Positions 3,254 through 27,155 of a stretch of 30,857 nucleotides of DNA are shown piece after piece. The notes beneath the pieces were generated by a model. That model did not search any database and was not told the origin of the DNA. It saw only the letters and a list, made by a program, of their open reading frames with translations. Within the stretch, counting starts at the first letter, position 1. Each line of letters begins with the position of its first letter. The stretch is taken from the IMG/VR virus record IMGVR_UViG_3300011334_000236, positions 1-30,857 of that record; one strand, 5' to 3'. The stretch is from a virus (lineage: Duplodnaviria; Caudoviricetes). The position numbers were made by a program, and so were the translations under genes.

Positions 3254-3401
3254 ATTCAGGAATATAGAACTTCATTGAGAACTGGATTGCTTCGCTCAAA
3301 AAAGTGTTGCGACTATTCTCACCTCTTTTTTCGTCTATCTCGTTCCAAAGGTCTTTGTGTAAGTACACGCAGATACCTTTCTTAGTTTTGCTCTGCGCCA
3401 T
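3216..3401 (-). CDS. Ribbon-helix-helix (CopG/Arc-like) DNA-binding protein
   Basis: GICVYLHKDLWNEIDEKRGENSRNTFLSEAI fits the beta-alpha-alpha RHH pattern. Confidence 0.7.
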   Translation of the reverse strand: MAQSKTKKGICVYLHKDLWNEIDEKRGENSRNTFLSEAIQFSMKFYIPESKVKLKEQTSTK

Positions 3402-3606
3402 CTATTGTTTGTTTAGACATCATTGAACCTATCATAAGCGCTAAGTAGATTTTCTCTTTCGCGTTCATGTCCTTTCGTTGTGAAAGTTCAAGGAGAATAT
3501 CTCCGAGAATCTTTCCTTGCTGGAAGTAGGTTGCTATTGAGTTGACTATTTCGCGTTCTCTGTCGTGAGTCATTTTCAAAGACTCGTAAAGTGGTGTTTG
3601 TTTCAT
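3382..3606 (-). CDS. Hypothetical protein
   Basis: 74 aa ORF tiling the operon, with a promoter-like box just upstream. Confidence 0.7.
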   Translation of the reverse strand: MKQTPLYESLKMTHDREREIVNSIATYFQQGKILGDILLELSQRKDMNAKEKIYLALMIGSMMSKQTIDGAEQN

Positions 3607-3610
3607 TATG

Positions 3611-3618
3611 CTAATATA
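3611..3618 (-). promoter_or_regulatory. Bacteroidota -7-like box TATATTAG, 4 nt before ATG (possible leaderless transcript)
   Basis: Minus strand reads TATATTAG-cata-ATG. Same geometry as at 5499-5506. Confidence 0.5.
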
Positions 3619-3629
3619 TTTATTTATTT

Positions 3630-4931
3630 TTAACCTACAACATACTGTCCATAACTTGGATTAAGTTCGAAATACATTCGCATCATGATTGCGTCGGCAA
3701 CGTCAGGTGAAATACCTTCGCGGTTCTTGATTACGTCCTTCGGTGTAACCATAAGTTTTCCTTCCACGTCCGCGCGGTGTCGCTTAATCATTTCTAACTC
3801 TTTCACGATTTGTTCCTTGCGTCCGTTCACTAAAATAGTGAGCTTATTTTCCTCAACATATTGAGCCAATTTATAGTAACACTCGCTTTTGAGATTTTGG
3901 TATTGTGGTTGTTTGGGTTTAGATCCATTGACGAACCCCCGACATTTAAGAAAATCAACCACTCCACCACCAACACCGTCTTCATCTGCGACCACATCCT
4001 GTAACAAAATTGAGTGTTCTTTTGTTACGAGGCGAATCTTGTTCACGACCTCATCTAACGACGCTCTGCTCAACTCAATTATGTCAATGATAGTTAACCC
4101 GTGCCAAACGCAGATAATTGTTCTATCCTTTCCAAAACGCGCGATGTCAGCGGTGATATATTTCTTTCCTTCAATTAATTCATTGCGGAACATACGCAGT
4201 AGGTTATCGGTTGAGAACAACTTGTCGGAGTCGTCGTCAAACTCCCAGTTCCCTTCTAAAAGTCTTTTGCGGTCATACTCTGGAAGTTTCTGTAAGTTTT
4301 CAAGATAAGTCTGCGAGATATACGGGTTGTCCGTTGGAAGTGCTTGCACAAAGGCGCGGTCACTTCTTAAATTTCCTTTTTGGTGAGCAAAATAAAAGTC
4401 ATTATACAACCACCCCTTTGAAGGGTTACAAGTCATTAATCCCTTTGCTCTGTCATTAATCAATTTGTAACGTACACGCGACTGCAATATATCGATACAA
4501 CGCTTCGAAACTTCGGCTACCTCGTCAACGAAGTAGTCTGTGATTTCAATCGACCCAAATCTCTGAAAATCGGGATCTGAGGGCATATCTGCCAAATCCA
4601 TAAGTATCGTTTGGCTTCCGTTATACCACTTAATAACGTGGTCTTGTCCATTGTAGGTATAATGAACGTTCGGTTTTAGTCCGTGAAGCGTACAAAGTTC
4701 GAAGAAAGTTTGCATTGTAGATAAGCGTAACTTCTTTAATTCAGCACGACCGATTAAACCCTTCGTGCCAGGGTACTTCAACCGTCTTTTTATTTGCCAG
4801 TCGCAACCTAAAAAAGATTTTCCGCTGAATACACCGCCACCATAAAGAACCTGCGAAATAGGACTTTCATACGAAAGAAGTTCTAACGCTTGCTTTTGTT
4901 TGTCGTGGTAAATTATTTCACGTGCTTCCAT
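3630..4931 (-). CDS. terL: Terminase large subunit (with replacement N-terminus)
   Basis: Walker A GGVFSGKS, Walker B YFVDE, coupling motif TCNP, nuclease motifs ADIARFGKD and SPDVADA. Confidence 0.93.
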   Translation of the reverse strand: MEAREIIYHDKQKQALELLSYESPISQVLYGGGVFSGKSFLGCDWQIKRRLKYPGTKGLIGRAELKKLRLSTMQTFFELCTLHGLKPNVHYTYNGQDHVIKWYNGSQTILMDLADMPSDPDFQRFGSIEITDYFVDEVAEVSKRCIDILQSRVRYKLINDRAKGLMTCNPSKGWLYNDFYFAHQKGNLRSDRAFVQALPTDNPYISQTYLENLQKLPEYDRKRLLEGNWEFDDDSDKLFSTDNLLRMFRNELIEGKKYITADIARFGKDRTIICVWHGLTIIDIIELSRASLDEVVNKIRLVTKEHSILLQDVVADEDGVGGGVVDFLKCRGFVNGSKPKQPQYQNLKSECYYKLAQYVEENKLTILVNGRKEQIVKELEMIKRHRADVEGKLMVTPKDVIKNREGISPDVADAIMMRMYFELNPSYGQYVVG

Positions 4932-5494
4932 GACTTCTTCAAAATTATATCCTTAATTGTGGCTGCGGCAACACCGTATTCTTTGCCTAACATTTCACGC
5001 GTATAAACACGCGGTTTAAATTTCTCGCGTATCTCAACAATATCTTTTTCAGTTAGCTTTGAAGTTCCAATTTCTTCACCTTTTACAAAGTTTGTGCATA
5101 TTGGTTTCTTAATCCTTCCTGCGTTGTAAGAATGCAACGTGTTTTCCTTTGGTGTAACCCACTCCAAATTCTCTACTCGATTATCGTCGCGGTTAAAATT
5201 TATGTGATTGACTTGAATTTTATTTTCATTGTTTTCAATCCACGTTTGAGCAACAACTCGGTGTATTTTGATTGTTGAAAATTTTCCATTTATTAAAAGC
5301 ATTGTGCGATAATAACCTTTCGCATCTTTCGCAGGTTTCATTATTGAAGGTTTGCTTCCGCCTTTATATCCAGTTGTGAGCAAACGTCCTTCGTTACTAA
5401 TCAAATAACGGTTGTTTGTATTTGCAACATACCTCCAAAGTTCATTCGGCAATTCTTCAATGCAAATGTTTAGTTCCTTAAGTGTGTAATTCAT
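4913..5494 (-). CDS. NUMOD4-HNH homing endonuclease with C-terminal HTH
   Basis: NUMOD4 ELWRYVANTNNRYLISNEGRL, HNH HRVVAQTWI...VNHINFNRDDNRVENLEWVTPKEN. ATG at 5494 preferred over TTG at 5542. Confidence 0.92.
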   Translation of the reverse strand: MNYTLKELNICIEELPNELWRYVANTNNRYLISNEGRLLTTGYKGGSKPSIMKPAKDAKGYYRTMLLINGKFSTIKIHRVVAQTWIENNENKIQVNHINFNRDDNRVENLEWVTPKENTLHSYNAGRIKKPICTNFVKGEEIGTSKLTEKDIVEIREKFKPRVYTREMLGKEYGVAAATIKDIILKKSWKHVK

Positions 5495-5498
5495 ACCA

Positions 5499-5506
5499 CT
5501 AATATA
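5499..5506 (-). promoter_or_regulatory. -7-like box TATATTAG in front of the HNH gene
   Basis: Minus strand reads TATATTAG-tggt-ATG. Confidence 0.5.
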
Positions 5507-5529
5507 CACTTTTATTCTTTGGGTGTAAC

Positions 5530-5661
5530 CTACAAAGTACAAAAGATATTCACAGCCCCTGCCGCGCCACCGTATAACAACTGTTCAACGATACTATCGG
5601 TGTTCAGAAAGTTCAACGCTTCAATCTGACGCGGCAGGTATGTTGGTTTATAGGGTGTCAA
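5530..5661 (-). pseudogene. terL: Orphaned original terL N-terminus (43 aa, MTPYKPTYLPRQIEALNFLNTDSIVEQLLYGGAAG|AVNIFCTL)
   Basis: Translated by hand. The TTG start overlaps the upstream TGA. Aligns gap-free with the current terL N-terminus and breaks inside Walker A. Confidence 0.85.
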
Positions 5662-6005
5662 AATAATGATAATTGATTTTCTACAACTGGGTGAAGTTCG
5701 TCTTGAAGAATCTGAATAATACGATCGTATTTCTTCAAGTCATTGTTTTGCTTTACTTGGTGCAATAGCAATTCAAGACCTGCGTTGAACGCTTCGTCTT
5801 TCGTTGTGTATACGTTATGTTCAGCGTGGTAAATTAGCGGCTGCGACCAACCCTGCTCACGTCCTTGAAACCTTATTGCGTAACTCCACAAACCACGTTG
5901 AACAATAGCGGTACTAACCTGCGCTTCATATCCGTTAATGCACTTGTAAGTTTTCAAGATAGGATTCTCGCAGACACCTTGTTCGTTGTAAATGAACTGG
6001 CTCAT
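5658..6005 (-). CDS. Hypothetical protein (ends in QLSLF)
   Basis: 115 aa, ATGA-coupled. C-terminal QLSLF matches the beta-clamp-binding consensus QL[SD]LF. Confidence 0.75.
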   Translation of the reverse strand: MSQFIYNEQGVCENPILKTYKCINGYEAQVSTAIVQRGLWSYAIRFQGREQGWSQPLIYHAEHNVYTTKDEAFNAGLELLLHQVKQNNDLKKYDRIIQILQDELHPVVENQLSLF

Positions 6006-6757
6006 TGCTTTGACAAATAAAGTTTGTAAAGTTCTCTCATTCCTTCGAACCGTATTGATTCCTTCAACAACATTCTTTTGCGGTCGCTCATTCGGTCAAC
6101 CATTGACTGAACCAACTGTTGTTCGAAGTAGATGTTCTTCTTTGCGTTCGCTTTACAAAGGCGATATTCTTCTTCGGTGAAGGTGTCAGCGTTTATCTGT
6201 TTGCTTTCTTCGAGCCAACGCATAAGCGACACCGCACGAATCTCAATGACCGTGTACTTTCCTTTCTTAAAATTGTGCAAATCTTCCGCAAGCATCCTTC
6301 TCCAGCTGTCATCGTTTACCGCCATTTCGCTCTCCTTTAATTGTTTAGATTGTTCTTCTTTTGATTCCGCTATTTCTCTCTGAATTTGCAAGTTTGCCTT
6401 GTCGCGGTGTGGTTTGTAGTGCGTTAACACATCACCAATAAAAGACACACTCAACGCACCGAAGTGTTCGCATTTCTTTGACAGTTCATTCGCTGCGTTC
6501 AATTCGAAGGCGAGGTTGAAGTGTTCAAACGTAACCCACCGAAAGTTTTTGCCTATGAACTCGTGCAACATTTGAAGTAACTGCGCTTCTGGAAGGGCAA
6601 TACCATACATGGCGCACACCTTCGAGCAAAGTTTTACAAATGCAGGGAGTTCGTAGTCGGCAACAAATGCGCTTTCGCGCTCTGCACGATCAACCCTTTG
6701 TGTAATTGTGAGCGTCGTTGTAGATGCGTTGCGCAGCATCGGAGTCGAATTTTCCAT
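6002..6757 (-). CDS. Putative helicase-loader-like replication protein
   Basis: 251 aa helical protein directly after an initiator-like gene (lambda O-P-like order). Function inferred from position. Confidence 0.4.
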   Translation of the reverse strand: MENSTPMLRNASTTTLTITQRVDRAERESAFVADYELPAFVKLCSKVCAMYGIALPEAQLLQMLHEFIGKNFRWVTFEHFNLAFELNAANELSKKCEHFGALSVSFIGDVLTHYKPHRDKANLQIQREIAESKEEQSKQLKESEMAVNDDSWRRMLAEDLHNFKKGKYTVIEIRAVSLMRWLEESKQINADTFTEEEYRLCKANAKKNIYFEQQLVQSMVDRMSDRKRMLLKESIRFEGMRELYKLYLSKQ

Positions 6758-7112
6758 TTTTGATTTTAGTTTGTTGGTTTGTAGTTACAAAGGTAGACAA
6801 GTCCCATTTACGAACCGCTGCTTTCCAGTCTTTCATTTGATTGCGTCCGACCTTCCAACCATTCGCTTCGTAGTGTGCGTGGAATTTCTCGGTAAATTTA
6901 AGCGCGTCGTCGTTGCTTAATTTCTCACACGCGTAGTCGTAAATCTCAACGACCGTTGGTTTGACGAATTGCGCTTTCTTTTCCTTTGGTATAAGCGTTG
7001 GTGTTGTCTGATTAGATAACTTCGCAATTAGTTCAATCAGTTGATGTTCATGTTCCTGAACCTGCGCTTCGAGAATCTCAATTCTCTTTTTCAGTTGTAG
7101 TATTAGCATCAT
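6690..7112 (-). CDS. Replication-initiator C-terminal-domain protein with N-terminal coiled coil
   Basis: FVKPTVVEI...KFHAHYEANGWKVGRNQMKDWKAAVRKW is typical of phage replisome-organiser C-termini. Confidence 0.65.
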   Translation of the reverse strand: MMLILQLKKRIEILEAQVQEHEHQLIELIAKLSNQTTPTLIPKEKKAQFVKPTVVEIYDYACEKLSNDDALKFTEKFHAHYEANGWKVGRNQMKDWKAAVRKWDLSTFVTTNQQTKIKNGKFDSDAAQRIYNDAHNYTKG

Positions 7113-7125
7113 GTTTTATTTTTAG

Positions 7126-7329
7126 TTAGTCCCAACCTTCGCCTTTTGCGTCGTCGTCTGCGTCGTCCCAGTCTTGACAATCGAAACATACTTTAATTTC
7201 TCCCTCGTCGTCGACAAATTCGTAGGCGGTGTCCCAATCTTCAAGTTGTTGGTCACGCAAGATTTCGTCAACTCGTTCTGCGAGTTCTTTGCTTTCGCAG
7301 TTTGGACAGAATGTCAATTCACTTTTCAT
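7126..7329 (-). CDS. Small acidic Zn-finger protein
   Basis: CPNC...CFDC, strongly D/E-rich. Confidence 0.7.
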   Translation of the reverse strand: MKSELTFCPNCESKELAERVDEILRDQQLEDWDTAYEFVDDEGEIKVCFDCQDWDDADDDAKGEGWD

Positions 7330-7337
7330 AGTTTTAG

Positions 7338-7871
7338 TTATTTGATTTTAGATTTTCTTTTTGCGCTGAGTGTCTTTTGATGTTCAACGTGTTCGACAAA
7401 TTTAGTAAAAAAAGTCATAGGTTTAGCATAACCCATCTCATTTAGTATAAAACAAATGCGTTCAACGTTGCCTCGGTAGTATTTGTCCCACTCAACCTGA
7501 GCAGACGCTTGTTTGATTCCGTGCAGAATAGTAGCGTGGTCTTTCTTGTAACGGTCACCTACGTTTTGAAGCGAGAGAACGTAACAGGGACGAATGATAA
7601 AAAAAATGATTTGTCGTGCGTTTACTATCTCACGCTTCCTTGTCGGTGTGTATAGCGCTTGCGAAGGTACTCCCAAGACCGAACACGTTACATCTTCCAG
7701 AGCCGACCAAAACATATCTCGTTCGTTTTCCATTTGTTTCTGCATTTCTATTTGCTCACTCGTTAGACGTTCGTAGCGTGGTGTAATCATCGTCCACAAT
7801 AACTCGAAGCGTTCCATGTGTCTAAATGGTATCATGTCAAGCACTTCATTTCTTATCTGTTCGTTAGTCAT
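7338..7871 (-). CDS. DnaA C-terminal (domain IV) HTH-containing protein
   Basis: TRKREIVNARQI...SLQNVGDRYKKDHATILHG matches the DnaA domain IV signature (RDHTTVxH). No AAA+ domain. Confidence 0.85.
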   Translation of the reverse strand: MTNEQIRNEVLDMIPFRHMERFELLWTMITPRYERLTSEQIEMQKQMENERDMFWSALEDVTCSVLGVPSQALYTPTRKREIVNARQIIFFIIRPCYVLSLQNVGDRYKKDHATILHGIKQASAQVEWDKYYRGNVERICFILNEMGYAKPMTFFTKFVEHVEHQKTLSAKRKSKIK

Positions 7872-8103
7872 TTTCTTCGTTGATTAGTTTGGTAGGTGTA
7901 AAGGTGCTAAATACTTCTTCGCGTGACAACCCTGTGTGTAAACAAATGTTGTTGAAGTCTTTGATTCTCATTCGCTCTGGGTGTGTGACGTAAAGACGTG
8001 CCGTTGGATCGCTGATTCTCAAAGCTGCTTTAAATTTCGTCAGCGTCTTGAAGTTAATCTTGACTAAGCGACCGAATGGTGTTGAATACATTTGCTTGTT
8101 CAT
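7864..8103 (-). CDS. Putative HTH (Cro/XRE-like) protein
   Basis: TLTKFKAALRISDPTARLYVTHPERMRIKD resembles an XRE-type HTH. Confidence 0.5.
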   Translation of the reverse strand: MNKQMYSTPFGRLVKINFKTLTKFKAALRISDPTARLYVTHPERMRIKDFNNICLHTGLSREEVFSTFTPTKLINEEND

Positions 8104-8393
8104 TTTCTTAATAGTGGTTTGATTAGTTGCGCTTTCTTCTTATTGTCTTTGTCGTTTGTTCCGCGCAGTTCTGGATTGTATTGCTTAACCAATCGCGCTA
8201 TGCGTGTAATGTTGTCAGCGCTGACGTACTTGCCGCTTTCGTACATGGCGAAGAAGTTGCTTGTTATGTCTTTGCGTTCGTCGAACTGTTGTTCCCAAAC
8301 CTTTACACAAAGTGCTTTGTTGTTGTTGCGAAGAAATTTATACTTCTTAAGTAGTTTCTCAACGCGGTTTTCAAGTGATACTAATTTTTTCAT
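8100..8393 (-). CDS. Hypothetical basic protein
   Basis: 97 aa, A-rich start region, ATGA-coupled to the next gene. Confidence 0.7.
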   Translation of the reverse strand: MKKLVSLENRVEKLLKKYKFLRNNNKALCVKVWEQQFDERKDITSNFFAMYESGKYVSADNITRIARLVKQYNPELRGTNDKDNKKKAQLIKPLLRK

Positions 8394-8418
8394 TTTGTTG
8401 GTTTTGATTTATTAAGTT

Positions 8419-9250: not shown

Positions 9251-9541
9251 TTACACGTGGTCGTCAAAGATGTTAATGTCAAAGCTGAAAGTGATTCCGT
9301 CTTTTTCGAGTGTGACAAAGTCCAAGTCAAACTCAGGATCGTCGCTGCGGAAGAAACGACCTCGCAAATGGATCGTGAACATATTGTCTTGTTCGTCTAT
9401 GAAAACCAAGTGTTGTTTTTCGTCTACTTCAAACCAACCTGTTTGGTCATCGTTGTAGTTGTTAGCGATTACTTTGATTCTTTCGTTCAACGTGCGTATG
9501 TCGTCTTCGTTGAAGCAGTAAGTGATTTTTGGACAGTACAT
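9251..9541 (-). CDS. Hypothetical acidic protein
   Basis: 96 aa, A-rich start region. Confidence 0.7.
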   Translation of the reverse strand: MYCPKITYCFNEDDIRTLNERIKVIANNYNDDQTGWFEVDEKQHLVFIDEQDNMFTIHLRGRFFRSDDPEFDLDFVTLEKDGITFSFDINIFDDHV

Positions 9542-9552
9542 ATTTTTGATTT

Positions 9553-9909
9553 TTAGTGGTTACAAATGTATTCAATTAAGTTGTCGTTCCAACGTGCTTC
9601 CGAAAGTTTTTGATGTTTCTCAATGTTGGCTGCGACTTCGTTGTGCGTTAGGTTGTACGCTGACGCTGACGAAGAAACGCAAATAAAGTTAGATTTCTTG
9701 TGTTGGCTCTGGTAGTTCTTTCCAAGATGTTGAATCAAATTTGTTGAGTAGTGGTTCAAGTTCGTCAATTCTACTTTGACAAAACGTATCCCAAGCCAGT
9801 GTTCCATTTCTCTTGCTACCCCAATAATCTTGGGTTTGCATGATTGAATCCATAATGAGTTTAACGTCGTTTTCAAATAAGAACGGAGTTGTGTAAAGAT
9901 GTTTTTCAT
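9553..9909 (-). CDS. Hypothetical protein overlapping the 9689-9916 ORF
   Basis: 118 aa. The only ORF covering 9553-9688. Start uncertain. Confidence 0.4.
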   Translation of the reverse strand: MKNIFTQLRSYLKTTLNSLWIQSCKPKIIGVAREMEHWLGIRFVKVELTNLNHYSTNLIQHLGKNYQSQHKKSNFICVSSSASAYNLTHNEVAANIEKHQKLSEARWNDNLIEYICNH

Positions 9910-9916
9910 TGTTCAT
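9689..9916 (-). CDS. Hypothetical protein (MNNEKHLYTTPF..., 75 aa)
   Basis: ATG at 9916 follows AAAACCAAAAATCAA. Preferred over the track start at 9994. Confidence 0.65.
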   Translation of the reverse strand: MNNEKHLYTTPFLFENDVKLIMDSIMQTQDYWGSKRNGTLAWDTFCQSRIDELEPLLNKFDSTSWKELPEPTQEI

Positions 9917-9929
9917 TTGATTTTTGGTT

Positions 9930-10100
9930 TTAAATTTCTTTTGATAAGATGATTTCTTCGCGTGGAATGGCTGACTTGATTTTGTCGTAAGCACGTACCG
10001 CTTCGTCGTAGTCGTTGTACGACATATGAAACTCTCCGTTGACTACAATCTTATAGTACATATCAGTCAACGTTGTTTTTTGAATTAGTTCTACTTTCAT
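9930..10100 (-). CDS. Small early protein, 56 aa (MKVELIQKTTLTDMYYKIVVNGEF...)
   Basis: Translated by hand. ATGA-coupled to the upstream ORF. Confidence 0.75.
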   Translation of the reverse strand: MKVELIQKTTLTDMYYKIVVNGEFHMSYNDYDEAVRAYDKIKSAIPREEIILSKEI

Positions 10101-10445: not shown

Positions 10446-10475
10446 CAAATATATGCTAAACTTTTGAATACACAA
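10446..10475 (-). promoter_or_regulatory. Bacteroidota primary-sigma promoter driving the early operon
   Basis: Minus strand TTG-N19-TATATTTG, an exact match to the -33/-7 (TTG...TAnnTTTG) consensus. Confidence 0.85.
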
Positions 10476-10520: not shown

Positions 10521-10925
10521 ATGAATGTCAAGACATATAAAAAAAGTTACAAAAAAACTACTGCGAAGCGTAAAATTGCACCTGAAAGCGAAGCGAACCA
10601 ACAAGAGATAGTAATAAAGTACATTCGTTTAGCATATCCTCACGTTCTTTATTGCGCTTCAGCAGGTGGAATGCGTACAAGTTACTTGCAAGCTATTAAG
10701 ATGAAGCGTACTGGATATGTGAAAGGATTTCCTGACCTATTCATCTATGAACCAAACGCAGACTATCACGGTCTTGCTATTGAAATGAAGAAAGAAAAGG
10801 GTGGTGTTGCGTCGCCTGAACAAAAGTCATGGCAGGAACAATTAAGAAACAGAGGATACGCTTCGTATATTTGTAAAGGTAGCGAGGAAGCAATTAAGAT
10901 AATAGACGAATACTTTAATGAGTGA
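10521..10925 (+). CDS. VRR-NUC domain nuclease (resolvase-like)
   Basis: SEANQQ, KGFPDLFI, AIEMKKEKGGVASPEQKSW (PD-(D/E)xK). Confidence 0.9.
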   Translation: MNVKTYKKSYKKTTAKRKIAPESEANQQEIVIKYIRLAYPHVLYCASAGGMRTSYLQAIKMKRTGYVKGFPDLFIYEPNADYHGLAIEMKKEKGGVASPEQKSWQEQLRNRGYASYICKGSEEAIKIIDEYFNE

Positions 10926-11425
10926 AACTTGACCATTACATAGAAGGGCGATATAAGCACTTCAAAGAGTTAGCGTATAACATCGCTCGGAAAGAACCAT
11001 TCTTCGAGGATCTATTGCACGACTCTTTGCTTTCTATGTTCGGTTCGAAGCACATTGAAAAATTAATTGACACAGGTGACTTTGAGTTCTACTTAATCCG
11101 CGTAATGTATTTGTCGGTTAACAGTCCAACGTCGCCTTTCTACAAACAGACTATTGCGTGGAACAGAAACCGACGTGACTTCAAAGACTACGCGCACGAA
11201 GTTGATAAGACTTGGTTAGGCGCACGAATGACAAACGAACAACTGGACATTCTAATTAGTCGACTGAGTGAGTTTGAACGGTTAATCTTTCAGGAATACA
11301 TATTGGAAGACTTCACCTATCGAGAACTTTCAAAACAAACGGGAATACCCGTTACCTTCCTTTACAAAACAATTGATAGTATCAAACAAAAAATAAGAGC
11401 CAATGTTATTCGCAAAACACAATGA
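10922..11425 (+). CDS. ECF sigma-70-like factor (probable late-transcription regulator)
   Basis: Region 2-like EDLLHDSLL, region 4 LSEFERLIF...TYRELSKQTGIPVTFLYKTI. Confidence 0.75.
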   Translation: MKLDHYIEGRYKHFKELAYNIARKEPFFEDLLHDSLLSMFGSKHIEKLIDTGDFEFYLIRVMYLSVNSPTSPFYKQTIAWNRNRRDFKDYAHEVDKTWLGARMTNEQLDILISRLSEFERLIFQEYILEDFTYRELSKQTGIPVTFLYKTIDSIKQKIRANVIRKTQ

Positions 11426-11967: not shown

Positions 11968-12114
11968 AAAGTAAATGAACAACACTGAATAAACAACGTA
12001 AAAGCCTTCGTAAGTCAAAGCGAAGTAACCAATGACTACACTTGCAATATATCAATGCTTGGATCGAGCAACTGCCCTTTTAAGGGCAAAGACAGTTTGT
12101 TTTTCTTGGGGGGA

Positions 12115-12172
12115 CTTTTTCTTTTCTTTCTTTTTCTTTTACCTTTTTCTTTTTCTTTCTTTTCTTTTCTTT
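12115..12172. repeat. Polypyrimidine (CTTTT-like) tract in the largest non-coding region
   Basis: 58 nt of C/T with a single A. Confidence 0.9.
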
Positions 12173-12218
12173 ACACATTTAGTGACAGTCAATAAATTTA
12201 GTGTTATTAAAGACAGAC

Positions 12219-12860: not shown

Positions 12861-13609
12861 TAAAAGTTATACCTGCAAAAATTGCAAATGAATTTGTAAA
12901 AAAACATCATTATAGCGGCAAAATTGTAAACAATAGTTCTTTACACTTTGGTTGTTTTTTAGATAACAATTTACACGGTGTAATGAGTTACGGCAGCCCT
13001 TTTGATAAAAGCAGAGTTCTTGGAATGGTTCAACCTTGTTTGTGGAATGAAATGCTTGAACTTAACCGTATGGCTTTTGATGATTACTTGCCTAAAAATA
13101 GCGAAAGCAGATGCCTTGCAATAAGTATTAAACTAATCAAAAAAAATGCGCCGCATATTAAATGGCTTCTTTCTTTTAGCGACGGAACACAAAGTGGTGA
13201 CGGAACTATTTATAGGGCAAGTGGTTTTTATTTAACATCAGTAAAACCTAATTCAAGTATAATTGAATTGCCAAACGGAAAGAGAGTTGCAAGTATGACT
13301 TTTACAAAAGGCAAACACATATTATCACAAAATGGCAGAGCAGGTGTTCCAGAAGGAAGTAAGAAAGTTGCAGGGTTTCAACTTCGTTATATTTACTTAA
13401 TAGACAAATCTTGTCAAATTACCGTTCCAATTTTACCATTTAGCAAAATAGACGAAATGGGAGCAGGAATGTATAAGGGCAAAAAAATAACCCTGCAAGA
13501 ACGCAAGGTTATCAATTTGAGCGAAGTGGTCGAATCGAACGCCGACTCTGTTCTGGAAGAACAGCATGTTGCCACTACACTAACTCCGCGTAGTAAAAGT
13601 AAAAAATAA
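12836..13609 (+). CDS. mom: Mom-family adenine modification (GNAT-fold) enzyme
   Basis: FVKKHHYSG, ELNRM...PKNSESR, LLSFSDGTQ.GDGTIYRASGF are Mom-family motifs. Confidence 0.85.
   Translation: MGRAKEIIVKVIPAKIANEFVKKHHYSGKIVNNSSLHFGCFLDNNLHGVMSYGSPFDKSRVLGMVQPCLWNEMLELNRMAFDDYLPKNSESRCLAISIKLIKKNAPHIKWLLSFSDGTQSGDGTIYRASGFYLTSVKPNSSIIELPNGKRVASMTFTKGKHILSQNGRAGVPEGSKKVAGFQLRYIYLIDKSCQITVPILPFSKIDEMGAGMYKGKKITLQERKVINLSEVVESNADSVLEEQHVATTLTPRSKSKK
13520..13589 (-). tRNA. tRNA-Gly(TCC)-like gene with a one-nucleotide T-stem deletion; CCA not encoded
   Basis: GCGGAGU UA GUGU AGUGGCA ACAU G CUGUU CU-UCC-AG AACAG AGUC GGCG UUCGAUU CGACC ACUUCGC U folds as a cloverleaf. Confidence 0.85.
13594..13601 (-). 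promoter_or_regulatory. -7-like box TACTTTTA, 4 nt upstream of tRNA G1
   Basis: TAnnTTTA variant. No clear -33 element. Confidence 0.4.
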
Positions 13610-25698: not shown

Positions 25699-26283
25699 AT
25701 GAACAAAAAAATTAAAGTAATTGAGTACGGAGTAGACGACGAAGGTTTGCTCGGAGTATTCGCAATCAGCGTAGTAGAACAACCTGCAATAGGTGTCGAT
25801 TTCGTTGCGTTAAGCGAACAACACACGGTAAAGTTCAAAGAAGATTTCAGAGGTCTTTTATACGGCGCTTTGCTTATTCCTGACCAACTCATTTACAGAC
25901 GCAACGACAAGACCGAAGAAGAATACTACGTTAAGTATTCAAAGGACACCATTCGCTCAATTGCTTACAACTACTTAAAGCAAAACATGACGAACAACGC
26001 GACAGTTGAACACGCGAAAGTTGTCGACGGTGTTTCGTTGGTGGAAACGTGGATCATTGAAGGCGAAAACGACAAGTCTAAGAACTTCGGGTTTGACCTT
26101 CCAGAAGGCACTTGGTTCGGTTGCATGAAAGTGGACAACGAAGAAGTGAAGCAACAGATTCAAAACAAAGAAGTATTAGGTTTCTCTATTGAAGGGAACT
26201 TCCTTGCCGAGAAAGAAATGTATTTAAGCGAACACGTTAGCACTTTGCTCGAAGAATTAGACGCAATACTCAAAGGCGAGTAA
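25699..26283 (+). CDS. Prohead protease (XkdF-like serine protease)
   Basis: AISVVEQPAI, GALLIPD..IYR, ATVEH, PEGTWF, GFSIEG. Confidence 0.85.
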   Translation: MNKKIKVIEYGVDDEGLLGVFAISVVEQPAIGVDFVALSEQHTVKFKEDFRGLLYGALLIPDQLIYRRNDKTEEEYYVKYSKDTIRSIAYNYLKQNMTNNATVEHAKVVDGVSLVETWIIEGENDKSKNFGFDLPEGTWFGCMKVDNEEVKQQIQNKEVLGFSIEGNFLAEKEMYLSEHVSTLLEELDAILKGE

Positions 26284-26459
26284 TGAACATCGAAGCAGGG
26301 GGGTTCTTAAAGGTCGAGCTATTCAACGACGACGCTACCCTGTTTCTCAACGCACTCACCAAGATAACGAACGAGAGCGGTAAAATGGGGTTCAAGTCTT
26401 ATGGATTGAGCGAAGACGAAATGAAGACGCTAAACACGATATTGGATTCATTAGGATAA
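26283..26459 (+). CDS. Small hypothetical protein, 58 aa (MNIEAGGFLKVELFNDDATLFL...)
   Basis: Translated by hand. TAATG coupling to the protease. Confidence 0.7.
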   Translation: MNIEAGGFLKVELFNDDATLFLNALTKITNESGKMGFKSYGLSEDEMKTLNTILDSLG

Positions 26460-26542
26460 AAAAAACGAGGGGTAACTACTCCCCTCGTCAAACCTAAAAA
26501 TCAAAATCAACCTATGAAAAGCCGAATTGTGAAACAAATATA
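26458..26542 (-). ncRNA. Putative antisense sRNA with own promoter and terminator
   Basis: TATATTTG box (26542-26535), ~40 nt U-rich segment, hairpin ACGAGGGG-N8-CCCCUCGU, U-run. Confidence 0.65.
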
Positions 26543-26585
26543 CAGGTTTTTCTATTTAGGAACTAAACATTTAATAAACACTTAT

Positions 26586-27155
26586 ATGAACTTAAGAGAA
26601 AAAGTTAACGCTCTTTTCGCAAAGCACAATGTAAGCCTATCAGCTGAAGAAGTTGTTGAGGTGAAGCAAATGGTTGAAGCGATTTTAGAGGACGGAACAA
26701 GCATCTACTCGGACAGCGACACTTGGGCAGCTGGTGTTCGTGTATTCGCAAAGGACGCAGAAGGCAACGAGGTTGTTGTAGCGGACGGAGAGTACAAGAC
26801 AGCAGAAGGAATCATTGTTGTTGTAAGCGGTGGTCTTGTTGCTGAATTAAAGCCAATGGAAGAAGAAAGTCCAGAGGTTGAAGTAATCATCGAAGAAGAA
26901 CAAGCAACAGAGGTTGTTGCAGATTCTTTCAACGCAGAGGTTGAAGGTCTTTTGTCTTTGGTTGCTAAGTTAGAAAGCGAACTTGCTGACATCAAGAAGG
27001 CAAACACCGAACTTTCTGCAAACGTAGAGAAGTTGAGCGCACAACCTGCGGCAACATCAATCAAAGAAGTTAAACAATCAAAAGTAAGCGCACCTGCGAA
27101 GTCTTATAATAAGATGAGTGCAGAGGAGCGTTTCTTATTTCACTTAAAAAAATAA
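26586..27155 (+). CDS. Capsid scaffolding protein
   Basis: Acidic, ADGEY motif, C-terminal coiled coil, between protease and capsid. Frame open from 26514. Confidence 0.7.
   Translation: MNLREKVNALFAKHNVSLSAEEVVEVKQMVEAILEDGTSIYSDSDTWAAGVRVFAKDAEGNEVVVADGEYKTAEGIIVVVSGGLVAELKPMEEESPEVEVIIEEEQATEVVADSFNAEVEGLLSLVAKLESELADIKKANTELSANVEKLSAQPAATSIKEVKQSKVSAPAKSYNKMSAEERFLFHLKK

Follow-up and report, generated by a model that had tools for sequence, protein, structure and literature searches.

The DNA analysed here (30,857 bp, hereafter the window) is the complete record of a freshwater phage and carries terminal repeats. Among the 46 proteins scanned, an endolysin, a terminase, a portal protein, an XkdF-type protease, a capsid-like protein and a sigma factor were recognisable, and none was an integrase. 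The structural genes lie on the plus strand, and the minus strand from 10400 downward carries a run of small genes behind a host-type promoter box at 10453, which we took to be the early genes. A-rich leaders, TAnnTTTG boxes and the closest cultured relative, the Nonlabens phage P12024 (capsid identity 30%), point to a Bacteroidota host. In GTDB genomes, no prophage was found with a relative of the capsid, nor one with a relative of a distant small-ORF homologue. An Rfam scan of the whole window returned a tRNA-Gly, a GEBRO match far below the cut-off and nothing else. The tRNA-Gly(TCC) gene (13519-13589, minus strand) overlaps the end of a Mom-like gene on the opposite strand. The gene for the terminase large subunit (3382-5542, minus strand) belongs to the minus-strand block, where it follows an HNH gene and is separated from the head genes, and a long intergenic T/C-rich tract (12100-12180) lies ahead of a ParB-like gene.

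In the head-gene region, between the gene for a 58-aa protein and a scaffold-like gene, the minus strand carries a compact unit consisting of a predicted host promoter, a short body and an intrinsic terminator (Table 1). A sequence-only reading of the window had proposed a perfect promoter box on the minus strand of the head operon, driving an RNA of about 70 nt that contains an anti-AUG and ends in an 8-bp hairpin and a U-run. The box (TATATTTG at 26542-26535), the body (predicted to be 73 nt, 26530-26458) and the anti-AUG (opposite the ATG at 26514) were all confirmed; the terminal hairpin and an eight-U run are also present, with the stem (26489-26464) now counted as seven G-C-rich pairs, or nine with the flanking pairs. 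The unit has in addition a 5' hairpin, and its box sits inside a likely late promoter of the plus strand; this interlocking, and a resemblance to the Bacteroidota RNAs FopS and GibS, had no place in the sequence-only reading.

Table 1. Predicted features of the small-RNA unit, its surroundings and its putative targets in the window
Feature	Position	Strand	Remarks
Predicted small RNA, 73 nt	26458..26530	minus	ends inferred; +1 predicted at 26530
Host primary-sigma (sigma-ABfr) -7 box TATATTTG	26535..26542	minus	predicted promoter of the RNA
Possible -33 element	26564..26567	minus	21 nt from the box; reads TTTA in the window and TTTG in many relatives
5' hairpin, 7 pairs (3 G-U)	26507..26525	minus	loop UUCAU = anti-AUGAA
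U-rich linker, 18 nt, single-stranded	26489..26506	minus	predicted seed; complementary to AAAAUCAAA-type early leaders
Intrinsic terminator, hairpin and U-run	26458..26489	minus	8-U run at 26465-26458
58-aa gene	26283..26459	plus	convergent with the RNA; adjoins the unit in both lineage 1 and lineage 2
Likely phage late promoter AATT..GAAACA, 13-nt spacer, TTCTATTT	26525..26557	plus	interlocked with the promoter of the RNA
Scaffold-like gene	26589..27155	plus	weak match to phrog_24921; position before capsid
Phage sigma factor gene	10922-11425		
Likely early-operon promoter box TATATTTG	10446..10453	minus	+1 context ACAATT
Best predicted target, 67-aa acidic early gene (7126-7329), start region	7316..7355	minus	-18.7 kcal/mol
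Predicted target, gene 8100-8393, start region	8388..8418	minus	-13.3 kcal/mol
Predicted target, gene 9553-9909, start region	9904..9930	minus	-11.9 kcal/mol
Predicted target, gene 9251-9541, leader	9544..9556	minus	-10.6 kcal/mol; 13-nt perfect complement
Predicted target, 251-aa gene (6002-6757), start region	6746..6781	minus	-10.1 kcal/mol

The U-run of the terminator and the stop codon of the 58-aa gene overlap. The 5' hairpin has a folding energy of -5.0 kcal/mol on the minus strand versus 0.0 on the plus strand, and the fold of the whole RNA has a z-score of -3.9, with none of 200 shuffles as good. The TAnnTTTG box alone is common, with 38 matches in the window; a blind scan for a box, a short body and a terminator (hairpin and U-run) returned this unit as the only one, with 0.15 expected. 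Both the box and its ACAATT +1 context are identical to those of the likely early-operon promoter. The -33 element belongs to a class described as weak (PMC6847099). Of 17 RNA runs listed, all of them as assembled contigs, none contained half of the words searched for. In the contigs from four of these runs, which cannot reveal a 73-nt RNA or its strand, the unit was bridged in one and had almost no cover in three. We regard the unit as very probably a real RNA gene.

The 58-aa protein, which has a conserved (I/M)GFK motif, gave 23 matches at E<=0.001 among 50% representatives, its distant homologues there being 57-62 aa long. No family match was obtained for it, and its predicted fold was of low confidence. 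Some relatives (L108, L112, L118, L121 and G033) have about 320 additional nucleotides where the protease gene ends, ahead of the 58-aa gene; their unit is intact.

We analysed the conservation of the unit in 141 loci collected by capsid and scaffold searches. There were 109 non-redundant loci with a scaffold match, 15 of which were dropped as too short upstream, and the remaining 94 together with the window gave 89 distinct sequences. Left out were G016 and G017, which are without the region, and seven of the 30 members of one set of relatives; G047, L416, L426, L428 and L497 were not scored as units. The unit was kept in all 89 sequences (88 relatives and the window). Promoter positions G-13, T-12, A-11, T-8 and T-7 were invariant in 111/111 distinct units, a count in which the search pattern itself dictated positions -6 to +1, although all 89 unselected sequences fit that pattern as well; both n positions of the box vary. 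In the upstream element, T stands at -37 and -36 in 111/111 units and at -35 in 102, and -34 is A or G in 110. The box numbering fits T-12 to G-5 of the F. johnsoniae promoter, as does the G at -5, and the G found at -10 in 24 of the 111 units departs from the published TAHHTTTG and is rare in F. johnsoniae promoters (PMC6847099). Judged by its sequence match and its invariance, the putative promoter would be a canonical sigma-ABfr promoter of the kind described for FopS.

The predicted transcript is similarly maintained. In lineage 1, that of the window, its predicted length is 71-75 nt, and the terminator stem occurs in four variants with compensatory swaps and is perfectly paired in 72/73 RNAs. 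A fold of -3 kcal/mol or better was predicted for the first 28 nt in 19/26 haplotypes versus 9/150 control antisense leaders; the 5' hairpin is maintained through different pairings, with the minus strand always folding better than the plus strand, and one sub-group (L083 type) has a weak 5' fold. UUUCAU is present in 64/73 lineage-1 RNAs, and the anti-AUG is absent from nine of the 73 and from 6/8 lineage-2 RNAs. In lineage 2, whose scaffold is about 60% identical, the layout is kept, and the hairpin and body differ. As related genomes are not independent, these counts represent in effect about four lineages.

The plus strand of the unit contains the AATT..GAAACA motif, which is likely to be a phage late promoter because a similar motif stands directly before the scaffold genes of distant phages that have no unit there; such a late-type motif precedes the scaffold in L319-L327 and in lineage 4. 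The sigma factor gene of the phage (10922-11425) is in keeping with this assignment. The two promoters are fully interlocked over 26525-26567 in lineages 1 and 2. This arrangement is what would be expected if the promoter mattered and the RNA were a by-product, that is, if host polymerase at the minus-strand box occluded the late promoter early and the terminator merely ended the transcript. However, occlusion leaves the conserved 5' hairpin and the leader complementarity described below unexplained, and the unit lies far from the late-type motif in lineage 3 and usually about 250 nt from it in lineage 4. We therefore consider occlusion alone improbable.

The plus strand could also be functional by itself: hairpin, A-rich leader and the ATG at 26514 would then start a scaffold that is 25 codons longer on a read-through mRNA, the minus-strand RNA being at most cis-antisense, an alternative that the sequence-only reading had raised. 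Gene callers annotate this long form, and the interval upstream of the scaffold gene contains some in-frame ATG or GTG in 87/89 sequences, an in-frame stop in only 1/89 and a fixed 57-nt spacing. The last of these can, however, follow from two interlocked promoters. The ATG at 26514 is in frame in 59/89 sequences and absent or out of frame in 30/89, and it lies upstream of the likely late promoter, both of which weaken the cis-antisense proposal. Furthermore, Ile/Met to Asn changes in lineage 2 keep the box, and the plus strand of the unit resembles early, not late, leaders. The true scaffold start is likely to be 26589, and the chance that the longer scaffold is what the locus encodes appears slim, the more so as the units of sister phages are flipped or lie elsewhere.

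The search of related phages for promoter-terminator units that the sequence-only reading had suggested found them in lineages 1-4, in G036 and in the cultured Nonlabens phage P12024L. The blind scan gave exactly one unit each in the window, in two lineage-2 genomes, in G036 and in P12024L. In G036, a distant relative (capsid 42%), the unit precedes the early genes and is on the same strand as them. A pattern search of IMG/VR returned 120 matches, 17 with a terminator, and led to lineage 4 (capsid 48%), in which the unit occupies the same protease-scaffold gap but is flipped. Despite inversion of the unit in lineage 4 and its relocation in lineage 3, the U-rich strand remains the one behind the promoter, and at the three lineage-4 loci examined the opposite, A-rich strand opens only 16-34 codons, which again argues against a longer scaffold. 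With a relaxed box, a head-region unit was flagged in 12 of 14 near-complete lineage-4 genomes, a second unit on the minus strand in 11 of the 14 and a third in three; the second unit follows the last early gene, a position checked in G049 and G050. In a version of the scan that missed G033, 13 genomes yielded 16 units versus 2.1 expected; most of these genomes, though not G036 and P12024L, had been selected because they carry a unit.

In G049-G062 of lineage 4, the head-region unit is convergent with a minus-strand gene of 43-44 aa, with one terminator common to both; by eye, the product of this gene looks like a ribbon-helix-helix protein. In P12024L (NC_018272.1, L385), the promoter, U-rich body and terminator lie at 9826-9900 (from about 9838) on the plus strand, between holin and gp16, and the first 8 nt are identical to the 5' end of FopS. 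Three P12024L leaders directly behind TAnnTTTG boxes contain 9-mer complements of this unit.

We next consider the pairing of the RNA with early-gene start regions. All four early-gene matches given by the sequence-only reading are present (7322-7331, about 8385-8412, 9544-9556 and 9914-9932), and a fifth, at 6752-6772, had been missed. When opening costs were included, the five best of the 45 start regions in the window all belonged to early genes. The best non-self site genome-wide was 7316-7355; duplex scans of the whole body that ignored opening costs gave noisy results. An internal host-type box at 9570 immediately precedes the site at 9544-9556. The leader motif is kept in 21/22 relatives at the gene starting at 9541 and in 21/21 at the gene starting at 6757, where it overlaps an upstream reading frame. 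The 251-aa product of the latter gene had no match in Pfam, PDB or named viral folds, and its assignment as a lambda P-like loader was unsupported.

For a quantitative comparison, the 18-nt linker was scored on the five best early leaders against mononucleotide shuffles, with at most 4/100 shuffles as good counted as a pass and gene starts taken from heuristic calls. The window linker reached -12.2 kcal/mol versus -9.2 kcal/mol for shuffles (2/100 as good), so that the comparison with composition-matched shuffles called for by the sequence-only reading came out in favour of targeting, whereas on plus-strand leaders it was no better than shuffles (99/100). Kinship ignored, the linker beat shuffles on early leaders in 17/22 lineage-1 genomes (the exceptions being G002, G003, G005, G014 and G015) and in 3/3 lineage-2 genomes, versus 0/25 genomes on plus-strand leaders. 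In both lineages it paired better with leaders of its own lineage than with those of the other; covariation between RNA and leaders was not evident inside lineage 1. The motif AAAATCAAA occurred in 52/308 early versus 2/551 plus-strand leaders of lineage 1, and in 1/40 early leaders of lineage 2. A count of perfect 10-mer complements gave 59 versus 8.4 with shuffled bodies for the early leaders of lineage 1 (0/200) and 8 versus 2.2 for those of lineage 2 (2/200), compared with 11 versus 10.2 for plus-strand leaders. A 9-mer test was marginal for the window RNA (15/300), specific in lineage 1 (0-15/300) and weak elsewhere. As natural controls, pseudo-sRNAs taken from plus-strand leaders of this genome reached the score of the linker in 0/32 cases and those from early leaders in 1/14. 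Leaders directly behind host-type boxes outranked the shuffled-body result in the window (2/40) and in G036 and P12024L (1/40 each), but not in G034.

Outside lineages 1 and 2 the results were mixed. In lineage 4, pairing with the phage's own early leaders was better than that of shuffles in 6/6 cases for the second units (0-4/60) and in 2/5 only for the head-region units; the lineage-3 linker was borderline (5/60, twice), the P12024L linker was no better than shuffles (25/60), and the early-versus-late difference was significant in none of 14 tests. Complementarity to several start regions is therefore above chance in this lineage and mixed in the distant units. The sequence-only reading had cautioned that low-complexity matches inflate significance, and in the extreme the linker would be a U-rich stretch that separates the terminator from the late promoter and pairs by coincidence with any A-rich leader. 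The modest energies, and the several genomes and distant units that fail against shuffles, would fit this. Coincidence does not, however, account for the early-only asymmetry, the lineage matching and the natural pseudo-sRNA controls, nor for the excess of units in the 13 genomes, most of them picked for having a unit, and we regard it as highly improbable. What stands of the multi-target repressor proposed by the sequence-only reading is thus the complementarity to several early start regions, backed by conservation, composition-matched shuffles, pseudo-sRNA controls and lineage-matched pairing; repression is its predicted consequence.

The unit resembles a known family of Bacteroidota RNAs. 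FopS/GibS of B. thetaiotaomicron has a sigma-ABfr promoter, a length of about 65-70 nt, a terminator and a seed that pairs at start codons (PMC11697453, PMC7366714); its block of translation was shown in vitro with compensatory mutants, the tested targets being SusC mRNAs, and one copy was noted in a Caudovirales phage (PMC11697453). Like FopS (RF04319), the window RNA has a host sigma-ABfr promoter, about 70 nt, an intrinsic terminator and a U-rich seed predicted to act around several start codons. The two have sequence blocks in common in the same order, UUUUCAU(A/G)G in 45/73 and GAUUU..AGGUU in 61/73 lineage-1 RNAs; both blocks together occurred in 0/200,000 shuffles and 0/1,047 antisense leaders, the blocks having been chosen after seeing both sequences. 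The 9-nt core UUUUCAUAG of the FopS seed R1/R1' is present from nt 11, with different flanks. The RF04319 covariance model, however, scored the window unit at 14.2 bits and the best relative (L164) at 31.9, below the cut-off of 56, which was passed by 0/20 genomes and by the B. thetaiotaomicron control. Whereas FopS has a single-stranded 5' region, the window RNA has a predicted 5' hairpin that holds the anti-AUG in its loop. FopS has 12-15 paralogues per genome, whereas the window has one unit and lineage 4 up to three. The window RNA further differs in being phage-encoded, in having the phage's own early genes rather than PUL/SusC genes as predicted targets, and in its promoter being interlocked with a likely late promoter. 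By analogy, it is likely to work like FopS without being a FopS member, and is likely a variant of the FopS-like kind, set apart by its 5' hairpin, phage early targets and interlocked promoter. Common ancestry and convergence on the same leader consensus would give the same likeness here.

Short phage regulatory RNAs that act by base-pairing include P1 c4 and P4 CI. Similarly short are the phage antisense RNAs P22 sar, lambda OOP and aQ, BTP1 STnc6030 and Phi24B 24B_1, which use base-pairing to dampen phage genes or to shut out superinfecting phage and, in the available part of the review, act on one gene each, mostly in cis, in temperate proteobacterial phages (PMC12197685). In contrast with these, the window RNA lies far from its target set and would mask A-rich leaders that are free of Shine-Dalgarno sequences. 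No description of such a phage RNA was found in the literature searched, a coverage outside which most subscription journals fall. The unit could be among the unnamed candidates of the Fremin 2023 catalogue (PMC10690425).

The likeness to FopS raises the question of whose mRNAs are bound. A real RNA might have foreign main targets, either host mRNAs with like leaders (notably AUGAAA envelope genes such as those for SusC-type transporters, which are possible receptors) or the early mRNAs of superinfecting relatives, and would then serve host takeover or superinfection exclusion. This would fit the blocks in common with FopS, whose tested targets are SusC mRNAs, the poor match of lineage-4 head-region units to their own early leaders, a similar unit in a Crocinitomicaceae MAG contig, and the occurrence of the leader pattern before chromosomal genes at 49 loci in GTDB genomes, mostly of Bacteroidota. 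The signal-peptide bias of these 49 loci is, however, built into the pattern (ATGAAAA), and in lineages 1 and 2 the linker tracks the early-leader motif of the phage itself while plus-strand leaders are spared. Foreign main targets seem to us unlikely, with a chance worth bearing in mind.

The explanation we favour, with a modest degree of confidence and on sequence evidence, is that the RNA acts in trans mainly to damp the phage's own early translation. Since initiation by Bacteroidota ribosomes takes place on A-rich leaders that lack structure and involves no Shine-Dalgarno pairing (PMC6847099), a single U-rich RNA could hold down an entire class of genes. Host RNA polymerase would make the RNA from the start of infection, and its level would rise over time and as genome copies increase. 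Pairing would be nucleated by the linker and the UUCAU loop, the weak 5' stem would open, and the RNA would cover the A-rich leaders and AUG of several early mRNAs, blocking ribosome loading; early translation would thus be damped as negative feedback ahead of the late phase. Because the promoter of the RNA and the likely late promoter are interlocked, their use would be mutually exclusive: the late promoter would be kept quiet until the takeover by the phage sigma factor, at which point synthesis of the RNA would cease. A bolder version, which we offer as speculation and think rather unlikely, is that small Bacteroidota phages widely carry one to three stand-alone FopS-like anti-leader RNAs and that, in this lineage, the RNA forms part of a two-state switch. 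Host polymerase, while producing the RNA, would keep the late promoter shielded in a quiescent or carrier, kin-immune state with early translation damped and the head genes off, until the phage sigma factor flips it off. This would amount to a repressor-free control of lifestyle, and could be the source of chromosomal FopS-type RNAs. To our knowledge, early/late timing and kin exclusion in small Bacteroidota phages are poorly known. The idea can be tested, given a defined unit of 73 nt, a ranking of its predicted targets, natural variants with compensatory changes and the similar unit of cultured P12024L. The finding also bears on the suggestion, made in the FopS report, that phages spread FopS (PMC11697453).

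Units of this kind were also observed in other settings. The Crocinitomicaceae MAG contig (JBILNH010000024.1, L677) carries its unit between cellular-looking genes, named by eye as a ZIP-type transporter-like gene and a gene for a secreted-looking protein; it is possibly a chromosomal FopS-like RNA and a lead to the host. In unrelated viral contigs (L484/G046, L491/G044, G045 and L480), further units with a terminator contain CAU and, after it, UUUAGG or UUAAGG.
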